Source: Gammaproteobacteria bacterium (GTDB lineage: Bacteria; Pseudomonadota; Gammaproteobacteria; Steroidobacterales; Steroidobacteraceae). Taken from it: a DNA stretch of 64,000 nt. The position numbers and the translations under genes are program-made. Of the stretch, positions 17,201 to 61,367 are shown piece by piece (within the stretch, counting starts at the first letter, position 1; each line of letters starts with the position of its first letter). A model generated the notes under the pieces. That model ran no database searches, had not been told where the DNA came from, and was given only the letters and a program-made list of their open reading frames with translations. Location: the NCBI GenBank assembly GCA_010027845.1, contig RGUL01000004.1:1810-65809 (forward strand). The letters run 5' to 3'.

Positions 17201-18049
17201 CTATTGTTGAGCGTCGCGCTGCTGCAGCAACCGCGGACGTGGCGCGACCGTCCGTCGCGGGCCGGTGCCCTCGAACACCTCCACCTTGGCTGACATCGAT
17301 TCCGCGCCGCCCCCACGCCGCACCCCACGCACCGGGCAAGCGTCGAGGTAGTCACGGCCGACCGCGAGACGGCAATGTTGTGGACCGGCTAGCGTTCCGT
17401 TCGTGACGTCCACCGAACACCAATGCTGCGCCTGCTCGAGCCATACGTCGACCCAGGCGTGGCTGGCGACGTGATCGTCGCGGTCGGTTAATAGGTAGCC
17501 GCTGACGTATCGCGCAGGCAGACCGAGCGCGCGACTACACGCGAGCATCACGTGTGCGTGATCCTGGCAGACACCGCGGCCCAACGCGAAGGCATGCGCT
17601 GCCGTATCGAACACCGCCGTTGCACCGGCCACGTAGTCGAGCGTCTCACGGATTCGCAACGCGAGCTTAATTACGTCGTCTTGATCGAACCCCGAACGGC
17701 GCGATCCGGCGAACGCCCTCAACGCCTCGTCGGCTCGCGTCAGTACGGTCTCCGGAAGATAGACGAGCGGCGAAAGTGAGTGCGCCGCTAACGCGGCCGC
17801 GGTCGGTTCCGTCTCGACGACGCCAGCGACCAATATTTGAATTTCGTCATGCGGCTCGTCGATCGTCAACAGGTGCATGACGTTGCCGTGGGCATCGACT
17901 TGTTGAGCCTGCTTACCGGGCGCCGAGAGAGTCCAATTCTGTACCCGTTGACCGGCGTCGGCACGGGGCGTCAAACGTAGGCTTTGCACGCTGTGCCGTA
18001 CCGGGCGGTCGTAGCGATAGAGAGTTTCGTGTCGGATTTGCAGCAACAT
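17201..18049 (-). CDS. Transglutaminase-family protein
   Basis: Start moved to ATG 18049 (MLLQIRHETLYRYDRPV, the typical N-terminus). Catalytic GRGVCQDHAH motif. The longer ORF-track N-terminus overlaps the alpha-E gene. Confidence 0.85.
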   Translation of the reverse strand: MLLQIRHETLYRYDRPVRHSVQSLRLTPRADAGQRVQNWTLSAPGKQAQQVDAHGNVMHLLTIDEPHDEIQILVAGVVETEPTAAALAAHSLSPLVYLPETVLTRADEALRAFAGSRRSGFDQDDVIKLALRIRETLDYVAGATAVFDTAAHAFALGRGVCQDHAHVMLACSRALGLPARYVSGYLLTDRDDHVASHAWVDVWLEQAQHWCSVDVTNGTLAGPQHCRLAVGRDYLDACPVRGVRRGGGAESMSAKVEVFEGTGPRRTVAPRPRLLQQRDAQQ

Positions 18050-18051
18050 GG

Positions 18052-19002
18052 TCAGACCGTCGCCGCCGACACCAAGAAATCCTCGCCGATCCGCGCACCG
18101 AGATCGCTCGTTTTGTTCAAGAACTCCTCTAAGTACCGACCCAGCCCCGACGTCAACACCTCGTCGATGCGACCGTATTGCAAACTCGCCTGGATCTCCC
18201 CGGCGCGTCGCAGTGTTTCGACCGATCGGACGTTTGCAACCTTCACCAATATTGCGTGTACGCGACTCATGCTGTGATGCAGTGAACGTGGCATGCCATC
18301 GCGCAACATCAACAACTCCGCAACACGCCGCGGCGTGATCACGTCGCGATACACCTTTCGATAGATCTCGAAAGCCGACACCGAACGCAACAACGCGCTC
18401 CACTCGTAATAGTCTGCGGCGTCATCATATTTTGATGCATCGTCGGCGAACGAGGCGAAATGAGCATCTAAGATGCGCGCCGTGTTGTCGGCGCGCTCCA
18501 GGTAGGTGCCGAGTCGAGTGAAGTCGAGCGCATCGTCATGCAGCATCGTACCCTCGATCACGCCACGCGCGAGATGCGAGCGAAATTTCACCCACTCGAA
18601 AAAATTCGTAATTCCCTGCACCGAAACCGAATCGCGTCTAAACCCGCGGATTTCGAGCCAGGTCGCATTGAGCGTTTCCCAAGTCTCTGACGTTAGCGTA
18701 CCGCGCACGGCATGGGCATTTTGCCGCGCGCGGTCTAAGCATTGTTCGATGCTGCCCGGGTTGGCGGGCTCGAAACTGATCCAGTCGATCGCTGCCGGTT
18801 GGCTTACGGATTGATGAGTCAATAGAAATGGCTGTAGCTGCCCAACGATCGCGAGCGTCGACGTCCAACGACGACGGACGGCTTCGTCCTCTTGACGCAA
18901 CAACGTCATACGGCAGTTGACGTCTAGCATGCGAGCGAGGTTTTCAGCGCGCTCGGTATAACGAGCCATCCAATATAGATGGTCTGCGGTGCGGCTCAGC
19001 AT
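18052..19002 (-). CDS. Alpha-E domain protein
   Basis: MLSRTADHLYWMARYTERAENLARMLDV is the canonical alpha-E N-terminus. Start at 19002 (or 19014). Confidence 0.85.
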   Translation of the reverse strand: MLSRTADHLYWMARYTERAENLARMLDVNCRMTLLRQEDEAVRRRWTSTLAIVGQLQPFLLTHQSVSQPAAIDWISFEPANPGSIEQCLDRARQNAHAVRGTLTSETWETLNATWLEIRGFRRDSVSVQGITNFFEWVKFRSHLARGVIEGTMLHDDALDFTRLGTYLERADNTARILDAHFASFADDASKYDDAADYYEWSALLRSVSAFEIYRKVYRDVITPRRVAELLMLRDGMPRSLHHSMSRVHAILVKVANVRSVETLRRAGEIQASLQYGRIDEVLTSGLGRYLEEFLNKTSDLGARIGEDFLVSAATV

Positions 19003-20414
19003 GTCAGCACCCAAGTATCTTTTGTGCCACCACCTTGCGATGAGTTGACCACCAATGATCCATCGCGCAGCGCGACGCGAGTCAAGCCGCCCGGCACCAT
19101 CGACACGTCACGGCCGGAGAGCACGAACGGACGCAGGTCGATATGTCGAGGCGCTAATCCGCTTTCGACAAAGGTTGGGCAAGCCGACAGCGCGAGGGTT
19201 GGCTGTGCGATATAACGAGCGGGATCGGTGATTATTTTGTTACGAAATGATTCGATTTCGACACGACTCGCGCGCGGTCCGATCAACATGCCATAGCCAC
19301 CCGCACCGTGCACTTCTTTGACGACGAGTTCGTCGAGATGTGACAAGACGTATTGCAGATCTTTGGGTCGACTCAAAATCCACGTCGGGACGTTTTGTAA
19401 TAACGGCTCCTCGCCGAGATAGAAGCGAATCATCTCGGGCACATAAGGATAGGTTGATTTATCGTCCGCGATGCCGCTGCCGATCGCATTCGAAATGGTG
19501 ACTCTCCCGGCTCGATAGGCCGTCAATAATCCGGGCACCCCGAGCATCGATTCGGGCTTGAATGCCAGCGGATCGAGATAGTCGTCGTCGATTCGCCGAT
19601 AGATGACGTCGACGCGGCGCGGGCCTTGCGTGGTGCGCATATAGACGACTTCATCATCGACGAATAGGTCCTGCCCTTCGACGAGTTCGATACCCATTTG
19701 CTGCGCGAGAAACGCATGCTCGAAATACGCGCTATTGCTCGCGCCAGGGGTCAGCAACACAACCGTTGGTTCACGCACACCGGCTGGGGCGACGCTACGC
19801 AAAGTGTCGAGCAGAAGATCCGGGTAATGTTCGACCGGCGCTACCGGATGCTCCGCAAACACCTCCGGAAACAGGCGCATCATAGCCTTGCGATCCTCGA
19901 GCATGTAGGACACACCCGAAGGCACGCGCAGATTATCCTCGAGGACGTAGTACTCCCCCGCGCCCGCGCGTACCAGATCGATTCCGGCGATTTGCGCGTA
20001 GACATCCATCGGCACGTCGATGCCTTGCATCTCCGGTCGATATTGCGCATTACATAAAACTTGCTCCGGGGGAATTTTGCCGGCGCGCAGAATTTGTTGA
20101 TCGTGATAGACGTCGTGCAAAAATGCATTGAGCGCAGTGACGCGCTGCCAAAGACCACGCTCGATCAAGTTCCACTCGGCCACGGGAATGATGCGCGGCA
20201 CGATGTCGAAGGGGATCAGTCGCTCCGTCCCGATCTCATCGCCATATACGGCGAACGTTATTCCGGCGCGACGGAACAGCGTGTCAGCTTCCGCGAGTTT
20301 CTCGCGCACGCGATCCGCGGGAAGTGCGGCCAACCATCTGGAGTAACGCGCGTAGTGTGCGCGGACGGCACCATCCGCAGCAGTCATTTCGTCAAAAATT
20401 TGCGCTGCCGGCAT
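18996..20414 (-). CDS. Circularly permuted type-2 ATP-grasp protein
   Basis: 472 aa, with conserved blocks YYVLEDNLRVPSGVSY and VVKEVHGAGGYGMLIGP. First gene of the Anbu operon. Confidence 0.85.
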   Translation of the reverse strand: MPAAQIFDEMTAADGAVRAHYARYSRWLAALPADRVREKLAEADTLFRRAGITFAVYGDEIGTERLIPFDIVPRIIPVAEWNLIERGLWQRVTALNAFLHDVYHDQQILRAGKIPPEQVLCNAQYRPEMQGIDVPMDVYAQIAGIDLVRAGAGEYYVLEDNLRVPSGVSYMLEDRKAMMRLFPEVFAEHPVAPVEHYPDLLLDTLRSVAPAGVREPTVVLLTPGASNSAYFEHAFLAQQMGIELVEGQDLFVDDEVVYMRTTQGPRRVDVIYRRIDDDYLDPLAFKPESMLGVPGLLTAYRAGRVTISNAIGSGIADDKSTYPYVPEMIRFYLGEEPLLQNVPTWILSRPKDLQYVLSHLDELVVKEVHGAGGYGMLIGPRASRVEIESFRNKIITDPARYIAQPTLALSACPTFVESGLAPRHIDLRPFVLSGRDVSMVPGGLTRVALRDGSLVVNSSQGGGTKDTWVLTC

Positions 20415-20536: not shown

Positions 20537-21529
20537 TCAACGATCGCAATCGACGACGACCTTGCCGATCACTTCGCGATTCAAAAGCTGCTCGATCGCA
20601 CGGCCACCCTCGGCGAGCGGAAAGCGGGCCGATACTAACGGATGAATCTTTCCCTCTGCATACATGGTGAGCAGCTCGCGCAATGCTGCATCGTATTTTT
20701 TCGGCTCTTGCCGACGCGCGGCCCCCATGAACACGCCGCGGATGTCACAGCCTTTCAGGAGGGGCAAGTTGAGTGGAATGCGCGGAATGCCGGCAGGGAA
20801 CCCGATGACGAGATAACGCCCGCGCCACGCCGCAGTGCGCAGCGCGGGCTCGGCGTAATCGCCGCCGACCGGATCGAAGATCACGTCTGCGCCGCGCGCA
20901 CCACAGGCACTTTTGAAAGCGGCAGCGAGTGCCTTGCCGTCGCTAGGCTCGACGGGATAGACGACGACCTCATCCGCGCCCGCAGCGCGCGCGGCCCGTG
21001 CCTTCGTCTCGGTCGACACGGCGGCGACGACGCGTGCGCCTAGCGATTTGCCGAGATCAATCGCTGCGAGACCGACGCCGCCCGCGGCACCGAGGACGAG
21101 CAGTGTTTCGCCTGCTTTCAATTCACCACGATCGACGAGTGCATGATGCACGGTGCTGTAGGTCACGAGCACGCCGGCGGCGACGTCGAAGGGCATGGAG
21201 TCGGGCATCGGAATGCAGTGCGCGGCATCGACCACGAGCTTGTCGGCGAAGCCGCCATATTCGACATGTGCGATCACTCGATCGCCGATTTTGAGGCTCT
21301 TGACCTCAGGCCCCACCAAGTCGATGACCCCAGACGTTTCCAGACCCGGCGCGAAAGGCCGCGGCGGACGCATCTGGTATTTATCTTCGATCAGCAATGC
21401 GTCCGGAAAATTGACGCCGCAACAACGCACGGCGATTCGCACTTGGCTTGACCCGACCGTCGGGTCCGGCAGTTCGCGTAACACCAACGCGGCCGGCCCG
21501 CCGGCAACTTCACTCAATAACGCTCGCAT
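20537..21529 (-). CDS. NADPH:quinone oxidoreductase (MDR/zeta-crystallin family)
   Basis: GVNFPD..., GETLLVLGAAGGVGLAAIDLGK Rossmann motif, about 330 aa. Confidence 0.8.
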   Translation of the reverse strand: MRALLSEVAGGPAALVLRELPDPTVGSSQVRIAVRCCGVNFPDALLIEDKYQMRPPRPFAPGLETSGVIDLVGPEVKSLKIGDRVIAHVEYGGFADKLVVDAAHCIPMPDSMPFDVAAGVLVTYSTVHHALVDRGELKAGETLLVLGAAGGVGLAAIDLGKSLGARVVAAVSTETKARAARAAGADEVVVYPVEPSDGKALAAAFKSACGARGADVIFDPVGGDYAEPALRTAAWRGRYLVIGFPAGIPRIPLNLPLLKGCDIRGVFMGAARRQEPKKYDAALRELLTMYAEGKIHPLVSARFPLAEGGRAIEQLLNREVIGKVVVDCDR

Positions 21530-21645: not shown

Positions 21646-22155
21646 ATGCTCCGCCTTGCCGTTCCAGTGAACGCCGCCGCTTTGAAAGTCGCCGCTTTGA
21701 GCCTCGCAGTGCTTTGCGGCGCGCGCCTGATGCTCGGACCGCTCGCCGCAGCAGCACCCGCCACCGGACTGCGCATCGAGTCGCCCATGGTGCGCGAAAC
21801 GCTGCCGGGACAAACTACCGGCAGCGCTTACCTCGTCATTCACAACGAGAGCGACGTCGCCAGACGTTTACTCGGTGCTGCGACGCCAGCAGCCCGCGAA
21901 ATACAGATTCACGACATGTCGCTGCGCGATGGCATCATGCGTATGCGACAAGTCACCGACGGTGTCGCAATTCCGGCGCGCGGTAAAGTGGCCTTCGTCG
22001 CCGGCGGCCTGCATCTGATGTTGGTCGGACTGCAGGCACCCCTCAGCGCCGGAAGCGACGTACCGCTCACCTTGCGATTCGATCGTGGTGGCGAACTCAC
22101 CATACCGATACGGATCGTGTCGATCGACGATACGACGTCGCAACCAAAGAAATGA
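21646..22155 (+). CDS. Periplasmic copper chaperone PCu(A)C
   Basis: Start moved to ATG 21646 (signal peptide). AYLVIHN, IQIHDM...MRMRQV and GGLHLML (HxM) Cu(I)-binding pattern. Confidence 0.75.
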   Translation: MLRLAVPVNAAALKVAALSLAVLCGARLMLGPLAAAAPATGLRIESPMVRETLPGQTTGSAYLVIHNESDVARRLLGAATPAAREIQIHDMSLRDGIMRMRQVTDGVAIPARGKVAFVAGGLHLMLVGLQAPLSAGSDVPLTLRFDRGGELTIPIRIVSIDDTTSQPKK

Positions 22156-22724
22156 TACGGCTGCTCGTTTTGATCTTCACCGCGCTACTCGGGGCTTGTA
22201 GTGCGCCGGCGCCGTTCAACGCCTCCGAGGTGCCGAAACTCGACTATGGTCACGGCGTCGAGTTGCGCGATACCGAAGGCAAGGTTCATCGCATCGAAGA
22301 ATTCCGCGGTCGCGTGACATTGCTGTTCTTCGGTTTCACGCGCTGCCCGGACGTGTGCCCGACGATGCTGTTGCGACTCAAAAAGGTGCGCGACGCCGTT
22401 GGGCCGCTCGCTTCGAACGTACAAGTCGTTTTACTCAGCGTTGATCCGGAGCGTGACACGCCGGACATCCTGCGGGCCTACGTTAAACATTTCGATCCGT
22501 CGTTCATCGCATTACGGCCCGAACCCGAGCGACTCGAACAAACGCTGAAGGCATTCCGCGCGATCGCAATTCGGGTGCCGACCGCAGACGGCAGCGATTA
22601 CACCGTCGATCACTCGGCGACGATTTTCGTCTACGACCGCACCGGTGCCTTGCGCTTGATCGCGCAGCCGCAACTGGAGATCGATAAGCTCGCCGCGGAC
22701 GTCGCGCGCCTCGTTCGCGAGTGA
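22152..22724 (+). CDS. SCO1/SenC-family copper-binding thiol:disulfide protein
   Basis: CPDVCP (CxxxC), conserved DHSATIFVYD His, lipoprotein-type leader LLGAC. ATGA overlap with PCuAC. Confidence 0.85.
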   Translation: MIRLLVLIFTALLGACSAPAPFNASEVPKLDYGHGVELRDTEGKVHRIEEFRGRVTLLFFGFTRCPDVCPTMLLRLKKVRDAVGPLASNVQVVLLSVDPERDTPDILRAYVKHFDPSFIALRPEPERLEQTLKAFRAIAIRVPTADGSDYTVDHSATIFVYDRTGALRLIAQPQLEIDKLAADVARLVRE

Positions 22725-22731
22725 GCGTTCG

Positions 22732-25428
22732 TTAGGATTTTTTTCGTCGGCGGGCGAACCACCAGCCGATCGAGCCCGCCACCGCAAACCCGACTGCCGG
22801 CCAGAGCAACGCCGGCAAAATCACACGTCGCAGTGCGTTCTGTGAAACCTGCGCACGCGGTTCATATCCCGCTGGTAACGGCAAAATTTTGTCGTCGCGC
22901 TCGAATTTTTGATAAGCGGCGCGCAAGCGCTCGAAGTCTTGCGGTCTCGTCCGACGCAAGTCGCGGGTCTCACCAGGATCCGCAGCGATGTCGAACAATT
23001 GCCAATTGCCGCTACCCACGGGCGGCATATTGCGCACCAACTTCAAATCACCGGCGAACAGCGCCGAATTTCCCGCCAGCTCGAACCCCACCGTCTCTTG
23101 CGGTCCGCGCGCCGATGCCGAAGCGCCACGTAACACCGGTACGAGGCTTTTACCCGAAATGGGTTCGATGCTGGGCGAAGGGTCGCCGACGGCGACGCCC
23201 GCGAGATCGAGTAGCGTCGGCGCGATATCCGTGACATGCGTGAAACTTTTGACGATGCGCCCACCGTGCTCGCCTGCCGGGAGCAAGCCAGGGCCGCGTA
23301 TCACGAGCGGCACCCTTAACGCGCCCTCACCCGCATAAAACTTATGAGTCGCGAGTGGTGCATTCGCCGCGCTCACCCAATTGGGGCCAATGGTGGCATA
23401 GGCGCCGGCACTGCCCATGCGATCGACCGCGCGGGTGTACTGCGTCATCAGCCACATACGCCCACTCAAATACTCGTAAGGATCGGAAGGCTCGGCTCCG
23501 TTATCGGACAAAAATACGAAAACGGTGTCTTGATCTTGACCGAGTGCACGGATCGTTTCGCGCAGGCGGCCGATTTCCGCGTCCATCGTCTCGGCCATCG
23601 CCGCATAAACTTCCATGCGTCGCGCGTCGTAGCGTCGTCGTTGCGGTGATAGCGAGTTCCACTCCTCGATACCGGGCCACTGCGCTGGTGCGGTGTTTGC
23701 CGGCAGCAGACCGAGCTCGATCGCCCGCTCGCGACGTCGATCGCGTACCACCTGCCATCCGGCATCGTACCTTCCATGCTGCCGCGCCATCGCCTCTGCG
23801 GGGGCCTGCAGCGGAATGTGATTCGCTTGAAATGCGAGGTACAACATGAACGGCGGCGGCTCACCCGCAGCGGTCTTGCGGATGGACCAATCGTTACGCA
23901 AGTAGTCGATCGCGCGATCGACGTAGTAGCGCGACGAATAGAATTCTTTGGGCATCTGCGTCGACTTGCCATCTTCGAACCAAGCGACACGATCGGTCAG
24001 CGCTAAATATCTTTGATCGGTACGCCAGTTATCCGAGCCGCTGTCACCTTGAACGATTGAGCGATCAAAGCCACGCGCCGGCGGCAGGTTGTACTCTTCC
24101 TTACCGACGTGCCATTTACCCACCGCATACGTGCGATAGCCGTGCTGCTGCAGCCGCGAGCTCATAGTCACGACGTTGCGATCGAGCACGGTCAGATAGC
24201 CGGGTTTACCCTCAAGTTGCGGTGGCACGGATTCGTGCATCGCACCGACGCCGGTACGATGACTATTGACACCAGTGAGCAGCATCGCGCGTGTCGGCGA
24301 GCATTCGCTCGCCACGTGAAAGTTAGCGAAGCGCGTGCCTTGGCTCGCTAACGTGTCGATGTTCGGCGTACGAATTTCGCTGCCGAACGCACCGATGTCG
24401 GTGTAGCCGAAATCGTCTGCGACGATCACCACGATGTTCGGCCGTCGCTGCGGGATATCTTTGTTTGCGGTCGCGGGGATCGAGCGCACGGTCCGAAAGC
24501 CGACGTGTGACGTGCCGAGCGAGGGATCTGCGGGCTGACGCGAACCGCTGCGATAGCGCTCGCAAAAGTCCGACGAACAAAGATGCGAACCACCTTTGAT
24601 GACGTGTTTGCCGGCTTTTTCTGGATCCGATCGTTTAGCGTCCGCGGCGGTCGCCGGTGCGACCGCGTCCGAATACCAATCGGTGGTCCACTCCCAAACG
24701 TTCCCGACCATGTCGTACAAGCCGCGCGCGTTGGCGGGGAAACAACCGGACGGAGCAACGCCGCGATAGCCGTCGTCCCCTTGGTCGAGCACCGGAAAAC
24801 TACCCTGCCACGTATTGGCCAGCCAACGACCCTGTGGGTCACGTCGCTCGGACTCGGGATCGTCGCTGGCCGCAACGTCGCCGCGCGCAGCCCACTCCCA
24901 CTCGAGTTCGGTAGGCAAGCGACGATCGCGCCACTTTGCATAGGCGGCCGCGTCTTCGAACGCGACGGCGGTTACCGGCTCGTCGTCGCGCGCGATCGAC
25001 CCGGCGCCGAGCGGGTTGCGCCAATTCGCCGAGGACTCGAGTCGCCAAGCACTCTGCCGGCGATCGAACACCGCCGCGCCCTGCGCCTTCCCGTCCGCGC
25101 CGATGCGCTCGGCGACGGTGACGTAGCCGGTAGCTTTGACGAAGGCCGCAAATTGCCCGTGCGTCACCTCGGTCGCGTCGATGTCGAAATCGTTAACTAC
25201 GCCGACACCGCCGACCCGCTCCTCGGGCCAGCGCGTCACGTCGCCACGATTCAGCCGACCACCGCGTACCGTAACCGTGCGACCGATCGCAGCGCTGCCG
25301 AGACACGCTGCGGATATCTTCGAAGTCGCCGTCGTCGCGCCGTTCGGCGGCAATGCCGCACGCTCGCAACCACTCAAAAAAATGCCGGCGCCGACGAGCG
25401 CGACCAGCAGAGTCCTCCGTTCGATCAC
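22732..25428 (-). CDS. Fusion protein: lipoprotein leader + formylglycine-generating enzyme (FGE/SUMF1) domain + type I (FGly) sulfatase-family hydrolase + C-terminal TM anchor
   Basis: GTG start in a GTGA overlap with the upstream stop. Lipobox FLSGC. FGE blocks RLPTELEWEWAARG, GNVWEWTTDWY and GGSHLCSSDFCERYRSGSRQ. Sulfatase blocks NIVVIVADDFGYTD and ASECSPTRAMLLTG. Tail LPALLWPAVGFAVAGSIGWWFARRRKKS. Confidence 0.85.
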   Translation of the reverse strand: MIERRTLLVALVGAGIFLSGCERAALPPNGATTATSKISAACLGSAAIGRTVTVRGGRLNRGDVTRWPEERVGGVGVVNDFDIDATEVTHGQFAAFVKATGYVTVAERIGADGKAQGAAVFDRRQSAWRLESSANWRNPLGAGSIARDDEPVTAVAFEDAAAYAKWRDRRLPTELEWEWAARGDVAASDDPESERRDPQGRWLANTWQGSFPVLDQGDDGYRGVAPSGCFPANARGLYDMVGNVWEWTTDWYSDAVAPATAADAKRSDPEKAGKHVIKGGSHLCSSDFCERYRSGSRQPADPSLGTSHVGFRTVRSIPATANKDIPQRRPNIVVIVADDFGYTDIGAFGSEIRTPNIDTLASQGTRFANFHVASECSPTRAMLLTGVNSHRTGVGAMHESVPPQLEGKPGYLTVLDRNVVTMSSRLQQHGYRTYAVGKWHVGKEEYNLPPARGFDRSIVQGDSGSDNWRTDQRYLALTDRVAWFEDGKSTQMPKEFYSSRYYVDRAIDYLRNDWSIRKTAAGEPPPFMLYLAFQANHIPLQAPAEAMARQHGRYDAGWQVVRDRRRERAIELGLLPANTAPAQWPGIEEWNSLSPQRRRYDARRMEVYAAMAETMDAEIGRLRETIRALGQDQDTVFVFLSDNGAEPSDPYEYLSGRMWLMTQYTRAVDRMGSAGAYATIGPNWVSAANAPLATHKFYAGEGALRVPLVIRGPGLLPAGEHGGRIVKSFTHVTDIAPTLLDLAGVAVGDPSPSIEPISGKSLVPVLRGASASARGPQETVGFELAGNSALFAGDLKLVRNMPPVGSGNWQLFDIAADPGETRDLRRTRPQDFERLRAAYQKFERDDKILPLPAGYEPRAQVSQNALRRVILPALLWPAVGFAVAGSIGWWFARRRKKS

Positions 25429-26528
25429 AACACGAGGCGCCGGTCCGCTTCGTGCAAACGTCCGGCAAGCTGCTGCAACAGTTCGCGCGTTTCGGTCGGG
25501 TGCTCGGCGATCACGTGTGCGAAATTGTCGATCGTTACCTTACGCAGCGATGCCGCTCGGGTCACGACCACCGATGCCGACCGCGGCAGTTGTAACAGCA
25601 GACCCATCTCACCCACCCACTCGCCCGGACCCAGTTTTGCGAGGACTAGCTCGCTGCCGTCGGCATTGCGCTTACGAACTTCGAGTTCGCCGCGCTCAAC
25701 GACGTACGCGCGATCGGCAATGTCACCTTCGTGCAAGACCACCGCACCGACCGGAAATAAAGTATGGCTACAGTCGGTGAAGATGCAGCGATAGCGCTCG
25801 GTGTGGAACAACTTCGCGCATCCGGCGCGCGCGCGAGCACCGAACGTCCAGCCATGTACGAAAACGGCGAGTACCGCGCCGGCAACCGGTCCGACGCAAT
25901 ACAACCAAAATCCGTCGAATACGGACGTCAACAACGCCGGCGCGAAGCTGCGCGCGGGATTTAGGCTCGTGCCCGAGACCGGCGCTTCCACGAACACCAG
26001 CAGCGCGACTAAAAGACCAGCGAAATACGGTGTGCGCGCGGCATGACGCGGTTCGTTGACGCAGTAGAGGATCGTGAACATCAGCATGAAGGTGATGACA
26101 AATTCCGCGCCGAGTGCGATCCCGGTCGAATATTCGGCGCCAGGCGTGGTCAAACCGAGTTGCACGCTTTGCGCTGCAGCGCCGCCGACGAGCGCGACGA
26201 TCATGACGCCCAATACCGCACCGGACATTTGCGCGATGCAGTAGGCGACCGCGTCCGGCCCCGTCACCTGACCTTTGACCCAAAACGCCAATGTGACAGC
26301 CGGGTTCAAGTGCCCGCCGCTGCGTTGTCCGAGCGGCGAAAGCACGACCGCCGTGCCACCGCCTGCGAACAACAAGCCCGTGCATAAGCGACGCAGTGGC
26401 TCGTTCGGAATCAACTCGCGCATGATGCTACCGTCGGACCACATGACGGTGACGGCGCCGATGCCCACGATCATCATGATCGCGGTGCCGAGAAACTCTG
26501 CAAAATATTCTGGTAGGTGTGATTTCAC
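25425..26528 (-). CDS. MIP-family channel (aquaporin) fused to a C-terminal cyclic-nucleotide-binding domain
   Basis: EYFAEFLGTAIMM, HLNPAVT (26298-26306) and SLNPARS (25953-25961). The C-terminal CNB has the phosphate-binding cassette GEMGLLLQLPRSAS. GTG 26528 is preferred over ATG 26648, which would overlap the upstream gene by 70 nt. Confidence 0.8.
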   Translation of the reverse strand: MKSHLPEYFAEFLGTAIMMIVGIGAVTVMWSDGSIMRELIPNEPLRRLCTGLLFAGGGTAVVLSPLGQRSGGHLNPAVTLAFWVKGQVTGPDAVAYCIAQMSGAVLGVMIVALVGGAAAQSVQLGLTTPGAEYSTGIALGAEFVITFMLMFTILYCVNEPRHAARTPYFAGLLVALLVFVEAPVSGTSLNPARSFAPALLTSVFDGFWLYCVGPVAGAVLAVFVHGWTFGARARAGCAKLFHTERYRCIFTDCSHTLFPVGAVVLHEGDIADRAYVVERGELEVRKRNADGSELVLAKLGPGEWVGEMGLLLQLPRSASVVVTRAASLRKVTIDNFAHVIAEHPTETRELLQQLAGRLHEADRRLVL

Positions 26529-26578: not shown

Positions 26579-28378
26579 TCAGCGCGCGACTTTGGCAGGC
26601 CCCGTTATTTTTTGAGGCGACACCCCCACTGGCGCATTCACGGTCCATTCATGATCGATTTGACCGTTACGCCGGGACGCGTTCTCGTCTTTCGGCAACC
26701 AAGCTCGAACGTACTGCGAGGTCACTTTGCCTGGCGTGACGGTCACACGCAGATGTCCGGAGCTGCTCACGATCGTCCCGGCGACATAGTGATAGTCGCT
26801 GGCGATGTTTGCACCACTATTGTTGTTCTTAGCGCTCGGTTGCGGAACGGTTTGATAGACGACACCGTCGAGTTCTTGGCGGACGTACACATGATCGTGT
26901 CCTTTGAATACTGCGGTGACTTTATATTTGACCAACAGGTCGTGGATCGGCGCCGTCCAACCCGGGCGCTTTTGCGCAAAGCCCGCCGAGCCGTCCGAAT
27001 TCTTACCGCCCCACTCGTAAAACGGCGCCGCCTCGATACCTCCGCGCATCGCGCCGTCGAGTCCGCCGACGATGTTGTGCAGGAACACGAATTTGAACGT
27101 CGCCGTACTTTTCGACAGCGTCTCGACCAGCCATTGATACTGGCGCGCACCGAGCGTGAAGTTCCAAGCATCCGCACCGGGCTTCGTGGCGGTGTTCCAA
27201 AAGGGATCGAGCACGATGAATTGGGCGTCACCCCAGTTCCAGGAGTACCACGCGACACGATTACCGGCGACCGGATCGACGAACGAGTCGCCCGTGTAAA
27301 ACGCATTCGGCGTCGGAATCGGAAAAAACTCGAGTCGTGCTTGCGATGCCCACATCGGCAAACTCTGCGCCGAGCCGTCGACCAGCCAGCCGAGCTCGGC
27401 GTCGTGGTTACCGTTCACCAAAAATAGTGGCGCAGAATGGGTCAACAATCCGAAGTTGGCGCGCTCGTAACGGTATCGCGCATCGAGCGTCGCTTTGCTC
27501 GTTGGTTGCGCGATGACCGCCGTGAGCGGCTCGGCATGCTTCTCAGTCATGAAGGTATCGCCGAGATCGACATGAAAATCCGGTTGATCGGCGAGTATGT
27601 TCGCGAGCGTGCGTTTGTACTGATCAACGTCGGAATTTTCGTCCATGTGCGAGTCGGCCTGCACCGTGAACGTGAAACTTTGACCCTTCGGTCGCGCGGT
27701 TTGAAACCGGTAATTCTTAGAAACAGTATCGGTTGTGCTACCGGTCTGTCGCAGAATCACGCGATATTGATATGCGGTGTTCGAACGTAATGCGTTCAAG
27801 GTCACCTCGAGAACTTTACCGGCGACGAGATTTTGCGTTGCAGACTGGGTTTCGCTCGCATCGGTCGCGGCTTTGTAGGCGATCGTCAGTGTGCCGCTAC
27901 GATCCACCGAATACAGTTTCAGCCGCATCGACGTGTCGGTGGGCGCACCGAGGACGATATCCCCGGGGAAATCGGCCGCGACGCTGACGGCGGCAGCTGG
28001 CGTGGCGGTCGCTGCGCTTGACGCGGCGCTGTTGCCGATCCGATTGGTCGCGATAACGGAGCAGGAATAGGCGGTGCCGTTCGTCAAACCACCAACGGTG
28101 ATCGGACTCGCCGCGCCCGTGCCGGTCGCGGTCGTAGAACCGGCCGCGCAACTCGCGGTGTAGCCGGTGATCGCCGCACCACCATCGCTCGACGGCGCGG
28201 TGAAACTCAGGGTGATCTTGCCATCGCCGGCGGCAGCGGCGACGGATGATGGTGCGCCCGGAACCGTTGCGGCGGGCGTCACCGGCGTCGGCGCGACCGG
28301 TGTCGACGCTGCGCCACCCCCGCCCCCACACGCCGCCAACGATGCGATGAGCAGACTAGGCCAAAGAATTTTGTGCAT
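26579..28378 (-). CDS. Lipoprotein: Fn3 domain + purple-acid-phosphatase-like metallophosphoesterase
   Basis: Start moved to ATG 28378 (MHKILWPSLLIASLAACGGGGG lipobox). Fn3 block ITLSFTAPSSDGGAAITGYTASC. Metallophosphoesterase motifs ADSH, LGDTF, VNGNHD and KGHDHVY. Confidence 0.7.
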   Translation of the reverse strand: MHKILWPSLLIASLAACGGGGGAASTPVAPTPVTPAATVPGAPSSVAAAAGDGKITLSFTAPSSDGGAAITGYTASCAAGSTTATGTGAASPITVGGLTNGTAYSCSVIATNRIGNSAASSAATATPAAAVSVAADFPGDIVLGAPTDTSMRLKLYSVDRSGTLTIAYKAATDASETQSATQNLVAGKVLEVTLNALRSNTAYQYRVILRQTGSTTDTVSKNYRFQTARPKGQSFTFTVQADSHMDENSDVDQYKRTLANILADQPDFHVDLGDTFMTEKHAEPLTAVIAQPTSKATLDARYRYERANFGLLTHSAPLFLVNGNHDAELGWLVDGSAQSLPMWASQARLEFFPIPTPNAFYTGDSFVDPVAGNRVAWYSWNWGDAQFIVLDPFWNTATKPGADAWNFTLGARQYQWLVETLSKSTATFKFVFLHNIVGGLDGAMRGGIEAAPFYEWGGKNSDGSAGFAQKRPGWTAPIHDLLVKYKVTAVFKGHDHVYVRQELDGVVYQTVPQPSAKNNNSGANIASDYHYVAGTIVSSSGHLRVTVTPGKVTSQYVRAWLPKDENASRRNGQIDHEWTVNAPVGVSPQKITGPAKVAR

Positions 28379-28389
28379 TGCGTGCGATC

Positions 28390-29871
28390 TCAAGGCAAAG
28401 AATACGAAAATGCGACGGTGCCCGACACCTTTCCGGGGCCTTCGTCGACCGGCAACCACACCCGCACGTATTCGACTTTGATGCCGGTCGGCGAAACCGT
28501 GACGCGGGTGTAGCCCGAGTTCGGATATTTGTCACCGCCGGTGTAGGCATCGTCATTTCGAAATGCGTATGCCGGGTCAGCCGGCTCGGGGAGCGTTTGA
28601 TAAGTGACGCCGTCGAGCGCCTCGCGCACCCAAATATGATCGTGTCCTTGGAAGAAAATGTTCACCTTGTTTGCGACGAGCAAACGATGAATCGGTAAAT
28701 TCCACGTCGGGCGTCGGGTCGCGAACTCGTCGACACCAGCGGCCGACTTCCCGCCCCACTCCCAAAGATTCGCGATCTCGATACCACCGCGACCGGTGCC
28801 TAGCACGTGGTGCGCAAAGACGAACTTGTATTTCGCCTTGCTCGTTTCGAGCGTCGTCTTCAGCCACTGATATTGACTGTCACCGTGCGTGACTTCCCAG
28901 GGGCTCGAACGTTTCGAACCGCCGCCGAAAACGTTGTCGACTGGCACCGGTGAGGACCAATACGGATCGATCACCACGAACAACGCGTCGCCCCAGGTCC
29001 AAGAATAGTAGTTGCGCAGTTGGCCGATGAAGGCGACCGGCTCGCTATTGCCGCCGTAAAACCGATCCGGTGCTGGTTGCGAGTACAAAGAATTCCGTGC
29101 ATTTTGCGCCCACACGGCCACGTTGTTCGGTGTGCCGTCGAGCAGATACCGTGCGGCCTGTTCGTGATTACCATTGACAAGAAATAGCGAAGCGCGTCGC
29201 GCGACCGTCGAAAAATATGGTCGCTGCAACGTGTAGCGGCCACGCACCTGCGCCTCGTTGATAGTGGTGGCGTCTAATGTATCGACGCTGAAATCGTCGC
29301 CCATCGCGATGTAGAAATCGGGTCGGTCCGCGGCCACTGCATCGAGCGTACGTTGGTAGAGCGTCGGATCGAATTCGGACTTCAAGCGCTCCGGATGCGA
29401 ATCACCCTGCAACGCGAACATGAAAGTCGAACCGGCCGGTCGCGCAGTTTGGAATTGCAGTTCATCGGTGGTCTGCGTCGTCGAGCCGTTCGCAGGCACG
29501 AGACTCACGCGGTAGTAGTAACGCGTATTAGCCGCCAAGTTCACCACGGCAACTTCGAGCGGTTTGTCTGCCGACAAATTAGCTGTCGCGGTTTGGGTGT
29601 CGAGTCGACCGGGCACCGTGCCGTAGGCGACGGTGACGGCCCCCGATTCGGTGGTCGAATAAAGATTCAGCTTGATTGAATCGCTGGTCGGCGAGGCGAG
29701 TACGATGTCGCCTTTGAAGGTGGTCGTCGCAGTGGTGGTCGGCGGCGTGGGTGTCGACGGGGCGGTCGGTGTGTTAGCAGCCGAAGACGGCGCCGACGAT
29801 CCACCACCACCGCAAGAAATTATCATCGCCGCACCGATCGCTACGACAATGTTGCGCAGTTGAACCGTCAA
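28390..29871 (-). CDS. Lipoprotein: purple-acid-phosphatase-like metallophosphoesterase (paralogue of 26579..28378, without Fn3)
   Basis: TTG start with GGAG 9 nt upstream. Lipobox IISCGGGG. Motifs GDSH, MGDDF, VNGNHE, FAHH and QGHDHIW. Confidence 0.7.
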   Translation of the reverse strand: MTVQLRNIVVAIGAAMIISCGGGGSSAPSSAANTPTAPSTPTPPTTTATTTFKGDIVLASPTSDSIKLNLYSTTESGAVTVAYGTVPGRLDTQTATANLSADKPLEVAVVNLAANTRYYYRVSLVPANGSTTQTTDELQFQTARPAGSTFMFALQGDSHPERLKSEFDPTLYQRTLDAVAADRPDFYIAMGDDFSVDTLDATTINEAQVRGRYTLQRPYFSTVARRASLFLVNGNHEQAARYLLDGTPNNVAVWAQNARNSLYSQPAPDRFYGGNSEPVAFIGQLRNYYSWTWGDALFVVIDPYWSSPVPVDNVFGGGSKRSSPWEVTHGDSQYQWLKTTLETSKAKYKFVFAHHVLGTGRGGIEIANLWEWGGKSAAGVDEFATRRPTWNLPIHRLLVANKVNIFFQGHDHIWVREALDGVTYQTLPEPADPAYAFRNDDAYTGGDKYPNSGYTRVTVSPTGIKVEYVRVWLPVDEGPGKVSGTVAFSYSLP

Positions 29872-29999: not shown

Positions 30000-31850
30000 A
30001 TGAAAGTTTTCCTCCAGCGTGCGCTGAGTTCAGCGCTCTTGATGGCCACTCTGTCGAGTTGCGGCGGTGGCGGCGGCAGTGGCGCCACGACGCCTACGAC
30101 CCCTACGACGCCCACTCCGCCGGCCACGGTGAGCACACCCGGCGCACCGACCGGCGTCACTGCGACCGTCGGTAATGCGACGCTGACGATCGCCTTCACG
30201 GCACCGAGTTCGAACGGCGGTGCGACGATCACGGGCTATACGGTCACTTGCACCGCCGGCGCGAACTCTAAAACCGCCACCGGCAGCGCAAGTCCGATCA
30301 GCGTGACGGGACTCACGAACGGCACCAATTACAGTTGCTCGGTCACCGCGACGAATTCCGCAGGTACCGGCGCCGCATCCACGAGCGTCACCGCGACGCC
30401 GGCCGCGCCTACCTCGAGCTTCGCGTTGACGAGTACAGCCGGGACGGCAGGTAGCGCGATGGCCGCGGACTACACATGTGATGGCACGGGCTCCTCGCCA
30501 CAACTATCTTGGACCAACGCGCCAGCTGGGACCAAAGAATTCGCTCTACTGATGACCACGCTGCCGGGCGACGGCACGACCAAGTGGAACTGGGTGCTGT
30601 ACGGCATCCCCGCAGCGACCAAGTCGCTCAACAAAGATACCTTCGGTATCGGCACGACCGGCGTCGGCAGCGATGGTCCGTTTGCCGGCTACCAGCCACC
30701 CTGCTCCCAAGGCCCGGGGGCGAAAACGTACACGTTTACGCTGTATGCGCTCTCTGCGACGCCCGATTTGTCTGCCGCCGGCTCGACCGTCAACGGCTCG
30801 ACGATCACGAGCGCGATCGCCGGGATTACTTTGGGTTCGGCCACGCTCGATCTCAACTACACGCGTCCGACGAATGCCACCGGTTCATCGACCGCCTGCG
30901 GCTATGTACGTAGTTCGCTCGGTGGTTCGACCACCGGCAACGCGAGCGTCGCCTGCGATGCTAACTACGCTTACGTCAGCTCGAACAGTCTCGCCACCCA
31001 CACGATGATGAATGGCATCACCGCCACCAACCTGCAGGTCCCGACCGCGCAAAATTTCTTAGGCGCCAACGGTTGGAAGATTCCGCTCGCACCGGCGATC
31101 GCCGCGAGCACGGTTTCCGCGGTCGACGGACCGATCGGTATCGCCGTGAACGGCGTGTTGATTTTCAATCCTTGCAAACAAGGTGGTTGCCAGAATGGTG
31201 ACACCAAGGTGCTCGGTGAACTCGACGTCTGTAACGGCCATGCGGGTCGAGCCGACGATTATCACTACCACGCTGCACCGGTGTGCATGATGCAAACCAA
31301 AGCGGCCAACTATTGGGATACGCACCCGGTCGGCTGGGCGCTCGATGGTTATGCGATCTATGGTTATAACGACGCCGACGGTAAGGTCGCGGCACGCGAC
31401 ACGGTGTGCGGCGGCAACACCAATGCCGTCGTCAACGGTCCGAGCGGCTACGCCTACCACGTCACCGACGCATCGCCGTACGTGCTCGCCTGCTTTCGCG
31501 GCACGCCGAGCCCGGACCTGGCGAACCAAAGCAGCAAATTCTCGCCGATGCGTCAGCCCCCCGTGCAGCCTTTCAAAGTTTCGAACATGACCTTGGCGAC
31601 CGACGCCAAAGATGGCTATCAAGTGCTGCAGTTCACCTCGGCGATCAATTTCACGACTAACGAAACGGGCTCCGACACTTATTCGAACGCACCCGGCACT
31701 TATCGCATTCGCTACAAGCAACTCGGCGGCGCGGAGCTCACCAACGCGCTCACACAATCCGGTAACGGGAATAAAACGGCGTGCTGGGCGTTCCAATTCA
31801 CCGATTCGGCAGGCGCGACGACCCAACCGAACATCACGTATTGCCGTTGA
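30000..31850 (+). CDS. Lipoprotein: Fn3 + PEBP (YbhB/YbcL-type) + YHYH-motif domain
   Basis: Lipobox LSSCGGGGG. Fn3 block LTIAFTAPSSNGGATITGYTVTC. PEBP-like DYTCDG...SPQLSWTNAP..EFALLM...YTFTLYAL. GHAGRADDYHYHAAP with YHYH at 31260-31271. Confidence 0.65.
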   Translation: MKVFLQRALSSALLMATLSSCGGGGGSGATTPTTPTTPTPPATVSTPGAPTGVTATVGNATLTIAFTAPSSNGGATITGYTVTCTAGANSKTATGSASPISVTGLTNGTNYSCSVTATNSAGTGAASTSVTATPAAPTSSFALTSTAGTAGSAMAADYTCDGTGSSPQLSWTNAPAGTKEFALLMTTLPGDGTTKWNWVLYGIPAATKSLNKDTFGIGTTGVGSDGPFAGYQPPCSQGPGAKTYTFTLYALSATPDLSAAGSTVNGSTITSAIAGITLGSATLDLNYTRPTNATGSSTACGYVRSSLGGSTTGNASVACDANYAYVSSNSLATHTMMNGITATNLQVPTAQNFLGANGWKIPLAPAIAASTVSAVDGPIGIAVNGVLIFNPCKQGGCQNGDTKVLGELDVCNGHAGRADDYHYHAAPVCMMQTKAANYWDTHPVGWALDGYAIYGYNDADGKVAARDTVCGGNTNAVVNGPSGYAYHVTDASPYVLACFRGTPSPDLANQSSKFSPMRQPPVQPFKVSNMTLATDAKDGYQVLQFTSAINFTTNETGSDTYSNAPGTYRIRYKQLGGAELTNALTQSGNGNKTACWAFQFTDSAGATTQPNITYCR

Positions 31851-60509: not shown

Positions 60510-61367
60510 ATGATTCTTCTGACAGGTATCACCGGCAATATCGGCAGCGCCACGGCGCGTGCACTGCTCGACAAGGGCGTCAAATTCCGCGCACTGGTTC
60601 GCAACCTCGAGAAAGCTGCGCCGTGGGGTGAGAAAGGCATCGAACTCGTGCAAGGCGATTTGGACGACGCGGCTTCGTTGCAACGCGCCCTCGCCGGCGT
60701 CGATCGCGCCCTGCTGGTGATGCCGAACGGCGAGTTCCAAGAGCGCGCCGAACTCGCGTTCACCAAAGCCGCGCAGGCCGCACGCCTCGGTTGGCTCATC
60801 AAACTCTCCTCGCCCGAAGCCGTTCGTGGGACGACGAGCCCCATCCCGCTCGCGCACATCGCCGCCGAGGACGCCATCATGGCGTCGGGCTTGAAGTGGA
60901 CCTTCGTGCGACCGAGTTTCTACATGCAAAATTTTCGCGGCTCAGTCAAAACCGCGCAGACGACCGGTAAGTTGTCGATGCCCATGGGTAACGGCACGAT
61001 CGCCGTGACCGATAACAACGACGCCGGCCTGTTCATCGCGAAAATTTTGACCGACGCCGACAGCACGCCGCACTACGGCCAGTGCTACGACATCACCGGA
61101 CCCGACCCGGTGATGAGCTTTCACGACGTCGCGCGCGCGATCGGCGAAACGATCGGCAAGCCGGTGGTCTACGACGACTGCGACCCGAAAGCGTTTCAAG
61201 AGGCGATCCGCCCGTTCCATCGCAATCAATGGCACTCTGACGCCGTCGCGCGTTTGTTCGCCGAAATCGCGAACGGCAGAACTCCCGGGCACAAGACCGA
61301 CACCTTTCAAAAAATCATGGGTCGCCCGGGCCGCTCGCTGCGCGAATATCTCGCAACCTTGGTTTGA
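60510..61367 (+). CDS. NmrA-family NAD(P)-binding protein
   Basis: Start moved to ATG 60510 (MILLTGITGNIGSATARALLDKG). Confidence 0.75.
   Translation: MILLTGITGNIGSATARALLDKGVKFRALVRNLEKAAPWGEKGIELVQGDLDDAASLQRALAGVDRALLVMPNGEFQERAELAFTKAAQAARLGWLIKLSSPEAVRGTTSPIPLAHIAAEDAIMASGLKWTFVRPSFYMQNFRGSVKTAQTTGKLSMPMGNGTIAVTDNNDAGLFIAKILTDADSTPHYGQCYDITGPDPVMSFHDVARAIGETIGKPVVYDDCDPKAFQEAIRPFHRNQWHSDAVARLFAEIANGRTPGHKTDTFQKIMGRPGRSLREYLATLV

Follow-up and report, generated by a model that had tools for sequence, protein, structure and literature searches.

Formylglycine-generating enzymes (FGEs) are well understood, as are type I sulfatases, and operons encoding the two together are common. The closest described maturases are the aerobic copper FGEs, for example human SUMF1/FGE (1Y1E) and the enzymes from Thermomonospora curvata (tcFGE; 5NXL/6S07) and Streptomyces coelicolor (2Q17/6MUJ). 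Human FGE is a soluble protein of the endoplasmic reticulum (ER) lumen, where the eukaryotic enzyme acts after translocation, which is topologically equivalent to acting in the periplasm. On the client side, the closest described enzyme is the arylsulfatase AtsA of Pseudomonas aeruginosa (PAS; 1HDH), generally described as soluble, whose solved chain of 536 residues, aligned from chain residue 3, has neither an N-terminal extension nor a transmembrane (TM) tail. The subject of this work is a gene on the minus strand (22732-25428) of a 64,000-nucleotide stretch of contig RGUL01000004.1 (hereafter, the window), which joins both enzymes on one chain. Its FGE half shares with the known aerobic enzymes the fold, the Cx4C Cu(I) pair, and the second-sphere Ser, Trp, and Arg, and its hydrolase half shares all the active-site residues of PAS and carries the FGE target motif CxPxRxxxLTG. 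Unlike the known aerobic FGEs, this FGE is a predicted lipoprotein, covalently joined to its client; unlike PAS, the hydrolase is predicted to be exported and held by a C-terminal TM anchor with an Arg/Lys tail, in addition to being joined to its maturase. The gene probably encodes a real, functional fusion of single origin, between an exported FGE and its exported and anchored sulfatase client, matured in the periplasm.

The open reading frame (ORF) starts with GTG and runs uninterrupted over 898 codons. A Pfam scan of the product, which is identical to NCBI entry NDD73736.1 from a 69 kb contig of a Gammaproteobacteria metagenome-assembled genome (MAG), places PF03781 (FGE-sulfatase) at residues 50-315 (1.1e-63, 215.7 bits against a cut-off of 23.3, profile positions 4-255 of 255) and PF00884 (Sulfatase) at residues 330-745 (3.4e-57, 194.5 bits against a cut-off of 25). 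Both scans had been proposed in the original prediction, which described a single uninterrupted reading frame, a bona fide aerobic FGE with its catalytic cysteine pair, a type I sulfatase-family hydrolase with a formylglycine (FGly) target motif, a lipobox at the N-terminus, and a hydrophobic helix followed by RRRKKS at the C-terminus. Each of these elements was recovered, and all the motifs and codon coordinates given for them check out. The sequence leaves no doubt about either fold.

Nineteen full-length fused versions, 87-100% identical and belonging to two 90%-identity clusters, are found in independent Logan, ENA, JGI, and NCBI assemblies, and all of them keep the catalytic residues. The linker between the domains is constant in length, with an identity of only 38-77% across the 19 versions. 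Because these intact versions share a linker of constant length, they point to a single fusion event. Pairwise comparisons of the fused versions give a dN/dS of 0.059-0.072 in the FGE domain and 0.056-0.062 in the sulfatase domain, as against 0.2-0.95 in the linker; dS reaches about 1. Strong purifying selection has thus been kept on both halves since the fusion, and the sequence evolution of the linker is almost neutral. The proteins of the second cluster are called at 861 amino acids (P0002), the gene caller having taken a downstream ATG. This shorter start was rejected, since the window has no methionine at that place and the GTG coupled to the upstream gene (GTGA) gives 898 amino acids in the second-cluster locus (L002) as well. 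The overlap of this GTG with the stop codon of the upstream gene recurs in five loci (the window, L001, L002, L003, and L086), in each of which it is the only start ahead of the signal peptide and gives a full lipoprotein signal.

The origin of the fusion can be read from split gene pairs of the same lineage. The fused lineage is gammaproteobacterial (MAG), and its relatives are named Steroidobacteraceae or Nevskiaceae. Next in similarity come sulfatases of about 600 amino acids that stand alone (including P0003, 78% identity, and P0004, 74%), and the split loci (L003-L005 and L086; proteins P0309/P0310 and P0003/P0004) have the gene order of the window, namely a MIP-cNMP channel, the FGE, the sulfatase, convergent SCO1 and PCuAC genes, and an alcohol dehydrogenase (ADH). 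Their FGEs (298-316 amino acids) are 78-79% identical and their sulfatases (598-603 amino acids) 74-78% identical to the fused halves. As in the fused protein, the split FGE carries a lipobox and the split sulfatase ends in the same C-terminal tail. The split operons differ in consisting of two genes, which overlap by 4 nt (ATGA), and in that the sulfatase has a Sec-type signal peptide of its own, e.g., MKAWIVMIAVVAALASHDRAYADA. In the fusion, the stop codon that ended the FGE gene was lost, together with the signal peptide of the sulfatase. A single clean deletion could not be reconstructed at the DNA level, as the linker can no longer be aligned with confidence to the part of the split loci that encodes the signal peptide. 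We conclude that the gene is a recent, single-origin fusion of adjacent and translationally coupled genes, whose products were both already exported.

The N-terminus, MIERRTLLVALVGAGIFLSGC, comprises a basic n-region, a hydrophobic h-region, and a lipobox (FLSGC, residues 17-21). Lipobox calls rest here on pattern matching ([LVI][ASTVI][GAS]C within about 15-35 residues of the start), and the same pattern is found in L001, L002, L003, and L086. The window signal contains a twin arginine (E-R-R-T-L-L), which is not kept in the relatives (D-T-R-T, K-L-A-E-P, S-R-S-Q). Tat export was consequently rejected, the RR of the S/T-R-R-x-F-L-K motif not being conserved, and Sec/SPase II export is more likely. 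The C-terminal tail would act as a stop-transfer anchor, its basic end lying in the cytoplasm. It recurs, as 'NALRRVILPxLxWP' followed by a TM helix and RRRR(R), in 112 of 118 stand-alone sulfatase homologues (P0003-P0120), which argues that the anchor is ancestral. In its three-part make-up, the tail also resembles the sorting signals of sortase or exosortase systems. Curated sorting-signal models (PEP-CTERM, LPXTG, MYXO-CTERM, and others) gave no convincing match: the PEP-CTERM model scores 14.8 against a cut-off of 16, the LPXTG model scores 18.5 against 15.9 on model positions 12-33 only (the TM and basic part, without an LPXTG motif), and the tail of a second family member matches neither of them. 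No other real gene of the window carries this tail.

Most bacterial FGEs encoded beside sulfatases, unlike the fused one, lack an export signal: in a crude survey of 72 distant FGEs linked to sulfatases, the N-terminus is hydrophobic in only about 10 and not in about 62. Among the 120 closest FGE homologues, about 90 carry a lipobox and most of the others are visibly truncated at one; all 120 have Cx4CxR. As the split relatives already encode a lipoprotein FGE and a Sec-exported, anchored sulfatase, periplasmic FGly formation probably is the ancestral state of the lineage and predates the fusion. The original prediction derived maturation outside the cytoplasm from the presence of maturase and client on one exported chain. 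That arrangement stands, but maturation outside the cytoplasm is not a consequence of the fusion, since both products of the split relatives (74-78% identity) are already exported. A sizeable and uncharacterised subfamily of lipoprotein, and hence presumably periplasmic, FGEs in Proteobacteria is thereby brought to light. It is large and proteobacterial (P0309-P0427, 54-79% identity), and its members share an extra conserved cysteine about 20 residues past the lipobox cysteine (C42 in the fused protein). Many of them adjoin no sulfatase, as in L170-L172, where the FGE gene lies beside a molybdopterin oxidoreductase, α/β-hydrolase, or β-lactamase-fold gene.

To assess how rare the architecture is, 1.84 billion cluster representatives were searched with a query spanning the junction, and the best 150 matches were examined. 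None of these 150 has the FGE-then-sulfatase order outside the clade: 10 match the FGE half only, 138 the sulfatase half only, and 2 both halves in reverse order. The scanned proteins matching the sulfatase half in two stretches are tandem sulfatases. Likewise, no single ORF combining the two domains occurs in 80 genome and 80 metagenome loci with distant FGEs, where the two are often adjacent genes; the metagenome FGE matches listed are relatives at 37-46% identity and are no census of close relatives. Three apparent long single ORFs (L024, L025, and L053) were rejected as fusions. The 120 closest FGE homologues listed (54-79% identity, a listing without the fused P0001/P0002) are all stand-alone. 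The view that the architecture is common was rejected for the FGE-to-sulfatase order on the basis of these three sets.

The original prediction knew of no characterised example, and this holds for the literature searched, where nothing relevant was found on an FGE-sulfatase fusion, on a periplasmic lipoprotein FGE, or on a link between FGE and PCuAC. The pairing of the domains is nevertheless not unique, as two clusters from Planctomycetota MAGs carry it in the order signal peptide, sulfatase, FGE: P0199 (815 amino acids; 15 cluster members, including Tara Oceans and Phycisphaerales MAGs) and P0181 (784 amino acids). Both are labelled by NCBI only as 'SUMF1/EgtB/PvdO family nonheme iron enzyme'. 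Like the fused protein, they have a Cys-type client (CTPSR or CAPTR), an intact FGE cysteine pair, and an N-terminal signal peptide. They differ from it in the reversed order, in lacking the lipobox and the C-terminal anchor, in belonging to another sulfatase subfamily, and in being of independent origin. These independent, exported fusions indicate that joining a maturase to its client is viable. The FGE half also matched giant proteins with 7-11 tandem FGE-fold domains (P0127, 3008 amino acids; P0188, 4448 amino acids; P0130; P0205).

The following mechanism can be proposed. The lipoprotein signal of the FGE would now export the whole chain, which Sec threads from N to C. The FGE domain would emerge first, be lipidated at Cys21, fold, and bind Cu(I) through C284/C289, with the adjacent PCuAC to SCO1 relay as a possible donor. 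Before the sulfatase half folds, this domain would then oxidise Cys376 of CSPTRAMLLTG to FGly, acting in cis or else in trans on neighbouring molecules tethered to the membrane. Action in cis is plausible, as 60 residues lie between the end of the FGE and Cys376. Finally, the C-terminal helix and RRRKKS would stop the transfer and anchor the chain in the inner membrane, giving a sulfate-ester hydrolase on the periplasmic face of this membrane. The fusion would ensure a 1:1 stoichiometry and the proximity of maturase and client.

The copper part of this scheme relates to a question stated to be open, namely the route by which copper reaches FGE in vivo (PMC5324649), for which PCuAC-SCO1 is a concrete though weak candidate. 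The pair lies 7 nt past the stop codon of the fusion gene, is adjacent in all six close loci (L001-L005 and L086), and has no cytochrome oxidase gene beside it. As in the PCuAC-SCO1 relay for CuA, a SCO1 lipoprotein with CxxxC and a periplasmic PCuAC are present, and both systems would load Cu(I) onto a cysteine pair in an oxidising periplasm. The difference is that the proposed client here is an FGE, with the linkage confined to a shallow clade. To our knowledge, no FGE has been shown to use this relay. Supply of Cu(I) to the periplasmic FGE by PCuAC/SCO1 is therefore put forward tentatively, as an idea that we think somewhat unlikely. A fuller version, in which PCuAC-SCO1 obligatorily loads Cu(I) and keeps the cysteine pair reduced, maturation takes place in cis during Sec translocation, and the cNMP-gated MIP channel is part of the same self-contained unit, appears improbable. 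If true, this module would be the first case of an FGE with a copper-delivery route of its own, and a natural single-chain, self-activating sulfatase.

Several points weigh against the proposed scheme. The PCuAC/SCO1 linkage is absent from the 160 distant FGE loci and from three FGE relatives at 61-68% identity, and a general linkage between FGEs and copper chaperones was rejected for this reason. The pair is convergent with the fusion gene and not co-transcribed with it, and inherited gene order alone could explain the adjacency, synteny being kept just as well for flanking genes such as the ADH. With a lipid anchor at the N-terminus and a TM helix at the C-terminus, the protein would have to be retained in the inner membrane, which is not predictable from the +2 residue (Glu). 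FGE turnover would also call for a periplasmic reductant. Lipidation, topology, FGly formation, cis or trans action, and the substrate are all inferred. Action in cis and copper delivery by PCuAC/SCO1 are much less certain than the core claim of a functional fusion.

The alternative that survives best is that the fusion is a selectively neutral accident, with an FGE acting mainly in trans on neighbouring molecules or other periplasmic sulfatases and no special self-maturation. The joining would have been tolerated since each partner was periplasmic and tethered to a membrane beforehand. In favour of this view, split genes are the rule among all other relatives, the fused versions form a narrow clade, the linker evolves neutrally, and nothing in the sequence demands action in cis. 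Against this, the fusion persisted through a dS of about 1 with both domains at a dN/dS of about 0.06, two further fusions arose independently in Planctomycetota, and the 64 kb window has no further sulfatase gene (a statement on the window, not on the rest of the genome). We consider the accident possible, with the odds against it. Under the favoured reading of a functional fusion, the gene is a rare, selected joining of a known enzyme and a known client; it brings no new pathway or principle, since the split ancestors would already mature the sulfatase in the periplasm. Its value lies elsewhere. A natural single-chain maturase-client protein is not described in the literature searched, and the fused and split forms, distinguished by the junction alone, provide a natural experiment. 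This bears on cis or trans action of FGE, on the supply of copper to FGE in the periplasm, on the timing of FGly formation relative to Sec export and folding, and on the effect of tethering on conversion yield, which is a practical problem for recombinant sulfatases and aldehyde-tagged proteins.

A second alternative concerns the substrate. The original prediction suggested that the hydrolase half could be a phosphodiesterase or phosphonate-monoester hydrolase serving phosphorus scavenging. Purple-acid-phosphatase-like genes do lie directly upstream (26579-29871), one phosphatase gene is conserved beside the fused second-cluster locus, the Pfam Phosphodiest model gives a weak match just below its cut-off (22.8 bits), and PAS-type enzymes are catalytically promiscuous. 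However, the best structural homologue, and the closest characterised one, is P. aeruginosa arylsulfatase 1HDH (2e-104, residues 328-842), with all the PAS catalytic and metal residues conserved: D338, D339, C376, R380, K438, H440, H537, D642, N643, and K696 correspond, in that order, to D13, D14, FGly51, R55, K113, H115, H211, D317, N318, and K375. The PehA/PMH model NF045661 reaches only 75.4 bits against a cut-off of 900, on short stretches. In addition, the phosphatase genes are absent beside the split loci of ancestral type and are thus recent neighbours, and distant members of the sulfatase family are surrounded by genes for acyl-CoA dehydrogenase, SDR, DSBA, and metallo-β-lactamase-fold proteins, not by phosphorus genes. 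The phosphoester suggestion is consequently poorly supported, and we regard it as quite unlikely. A sulfate ester is the best-supported predicted substrate, given the PAS-like half, the conservation of every catalytic residue, and the PehA score far below cut-off. One may speculate from the distant gene context that lipid-like sulfate esters are hydrolysed. Within the client motif, CSPTR spans residues 376-380 (24289-24303), and C376 is the sole cysteine of the sulfatase half. The subfamily is not that of the NCBIfam arylsulfatase equivalog PRK13759, whose model scores 120 bits against 481.

Thirdly, the N-terminal domain could be an FGE-fold protein with another role (PvdO, EgtB, PorK/GldK, or type VI secretion system immunity) and no sulfatase maturase. 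The fold is widely repurposed, and weak NCBIfam matches to EgtB, GldK, SenA, and PvdO were obtained. These four nevertheless score 52-80 bits against cut-offs of 350-500, and across the models for EgtB, SenA, OvoA, PvdO, GldK/PorK, and GldJ (23-80 bits) no cut-off in that range is reached. The best matches are bona fide FGEs of known structure (5nxl/6s07 at about 1e-54, 1y1e at 1e-51, and 2q17/6muj at about 2e-49), aligned over the whole domain. The FGE motifs named in the original prediction are RLPTELEWEWAARG at residues 170-183, GNVWEWTTDWY at residues 242-252, and GGSHLCSSDFCERYR at residues 279-293, the last with C284 (24577-24579) and C289 (24562-24564). In tcFGE, C269 and C274 are the Cu(I) ligands, and W228, S266, and R276 are residues of the O2 pocket or second sphere (PMC6676471). 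C284 and C289 fall in the alignment columns of the cysteine pairs of the T. curvata and human enzymes, with the same Cx4C spacing, so that the possible objection of non-homologous cysteines fails; together with S281, W247, and R291, they are invariant in the 19 fused members. The domain is, moreover, fused to, or encoded beside, a Cys-type sulfatase with a canonical client motif. Another role is thus highly improbable, and the domain is predicted to be a copper-type FGE that binds Cu(I) and forms FGly.

Lastly, it is hardly credible that errors of sequencing or assembly produced the ORF, or that it is a pseudogene descended from a split pair: although the window comes from a MAG and the nearest unfused relatives differ only in about 60-90 nt around the junction, the artefact or frameshift was rejected in view of 19 full-length fused ORFs from different studies and assemblers, with linkers equal in length and differing in sequence, of the purifying selection on both halves, and of the clean deletion of the sulfatase signal peptide, unlike what read-through of an intact split pair would give.

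Features of the fusion gene and its neighbours, in window coordinates
Feature	Position	Strand	Remarks
Whole fused gene: predicted lipoprotein signal, FGE, linker, sulfatase, C-terminal anchor	22732..25428	-	898 amino acids and stop
Predicted signal peptide with lipobox L-S-G-C (Cys21)	25366..25428	-	GTG start overlaps the stop of the upstream channel gene
FGE domain, residues 50-315	24484..25281	-	Pfam 1.1e-63; PDB matches
W247 (equivalent of tcFGE W228)	24688-24690	-	Alignment to tcFGE
Predicted copper site S281-H-L-C284-S-S-D-F-C289-E-R291	24556..24588	-	Alignment to tcFGE S266, C269, C274, R276
Linker SIPATANKDIPQR	24445..24483	-	13 residues, in place of the FGE stop codon and the sulfatase signal peptide
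Type I sulfatase domain, PAS-like, residues 329-850	22879..24444	-	Pfam, PDB; dN/dS about 0.06
Predicted FGly client motif C376-S-P-T-R-A-M-L-L-T-G, residues 376-386	24271..24303	-	Agrees with the signature C/S-x-P-x-R-xxx-L-T-G
C-terminal tail RRVILPALLWP, hydrophobic helix, RRRKKS (893-898)	22735..22830	-	Shared with homologues
MIP/aquaporin-family channel with C-terminal cyclic-nucleotide-binding domain	25425..26528	-	ORF extends to 26648, probable start 26528
SCO1/SenC copper chaperone, lipoprotein (LGAC), CPDVC motif	22152..22724	+	Convergent with the fusion gene
PCuAC periplasmic Cu(I) chaperone	21646..22155	+	ORF opens at 21448, probable ATG at 21646; overlaps the SCO1 start by 4 nt

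The channel gene, which appears to be translationally coupled to the fusion gene, matches MIP (3.8e-45) and cNMP_binding (1.2e-18) in Pfam, and is found upstream of the FGE gene in L002, L003-L005, and L086, as well as partially in L001. Further upstream lie two paralogous lipoproteins with purple-acid-phosphatase-like metallophosphoesterase domains, one of them with FN3 (26579-28459 and 28390-29871, both on the minus strand), and an FN3-PEBP-YHYH lipoprotein (30000-31850, plus strand). All three have Cys-Gly-Gly-Gly-Gly lipobox regions. The phosphatase-like gene at 26579-28459 is 88% conserved beside the fused locus L002 and absent from the split loci. On the other side, three consecutive ORFs occupy 17201-20414 on the minus strand: 18996-20414 encodes a circularly permuted ATP-grasp type 2 protein (CP_ATPgrasp_2, 2.2e-166), and the ORFs at 18052-19014 and 17201-18403 look, by eye, like the alpha-E and transglutaminase-like proteins that are frequent companions of such an ATP-grasp.

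Two further observations concern gene order around the sulfatase. One protein of 886 amino acids (P0173) combines a zinc-ADH-like (quinone oxidoreductase) N-terminal half with a sulfatase that, where the two match, is 57% identical to that of the window; a real fusion and a misassembly are both conceivable. In the locus family of the window, an ADH gene is found a few genes away from the sulfatase. An NmrA-family gene (60510-61364, plus strand) is 85% identical to one directly flanking the split loci (L003). Unlike in those loci, it lies about 35 kb from the fusion gene in the window, which indicates a rearrangement or insertion beside the cluster in the fused lineage.

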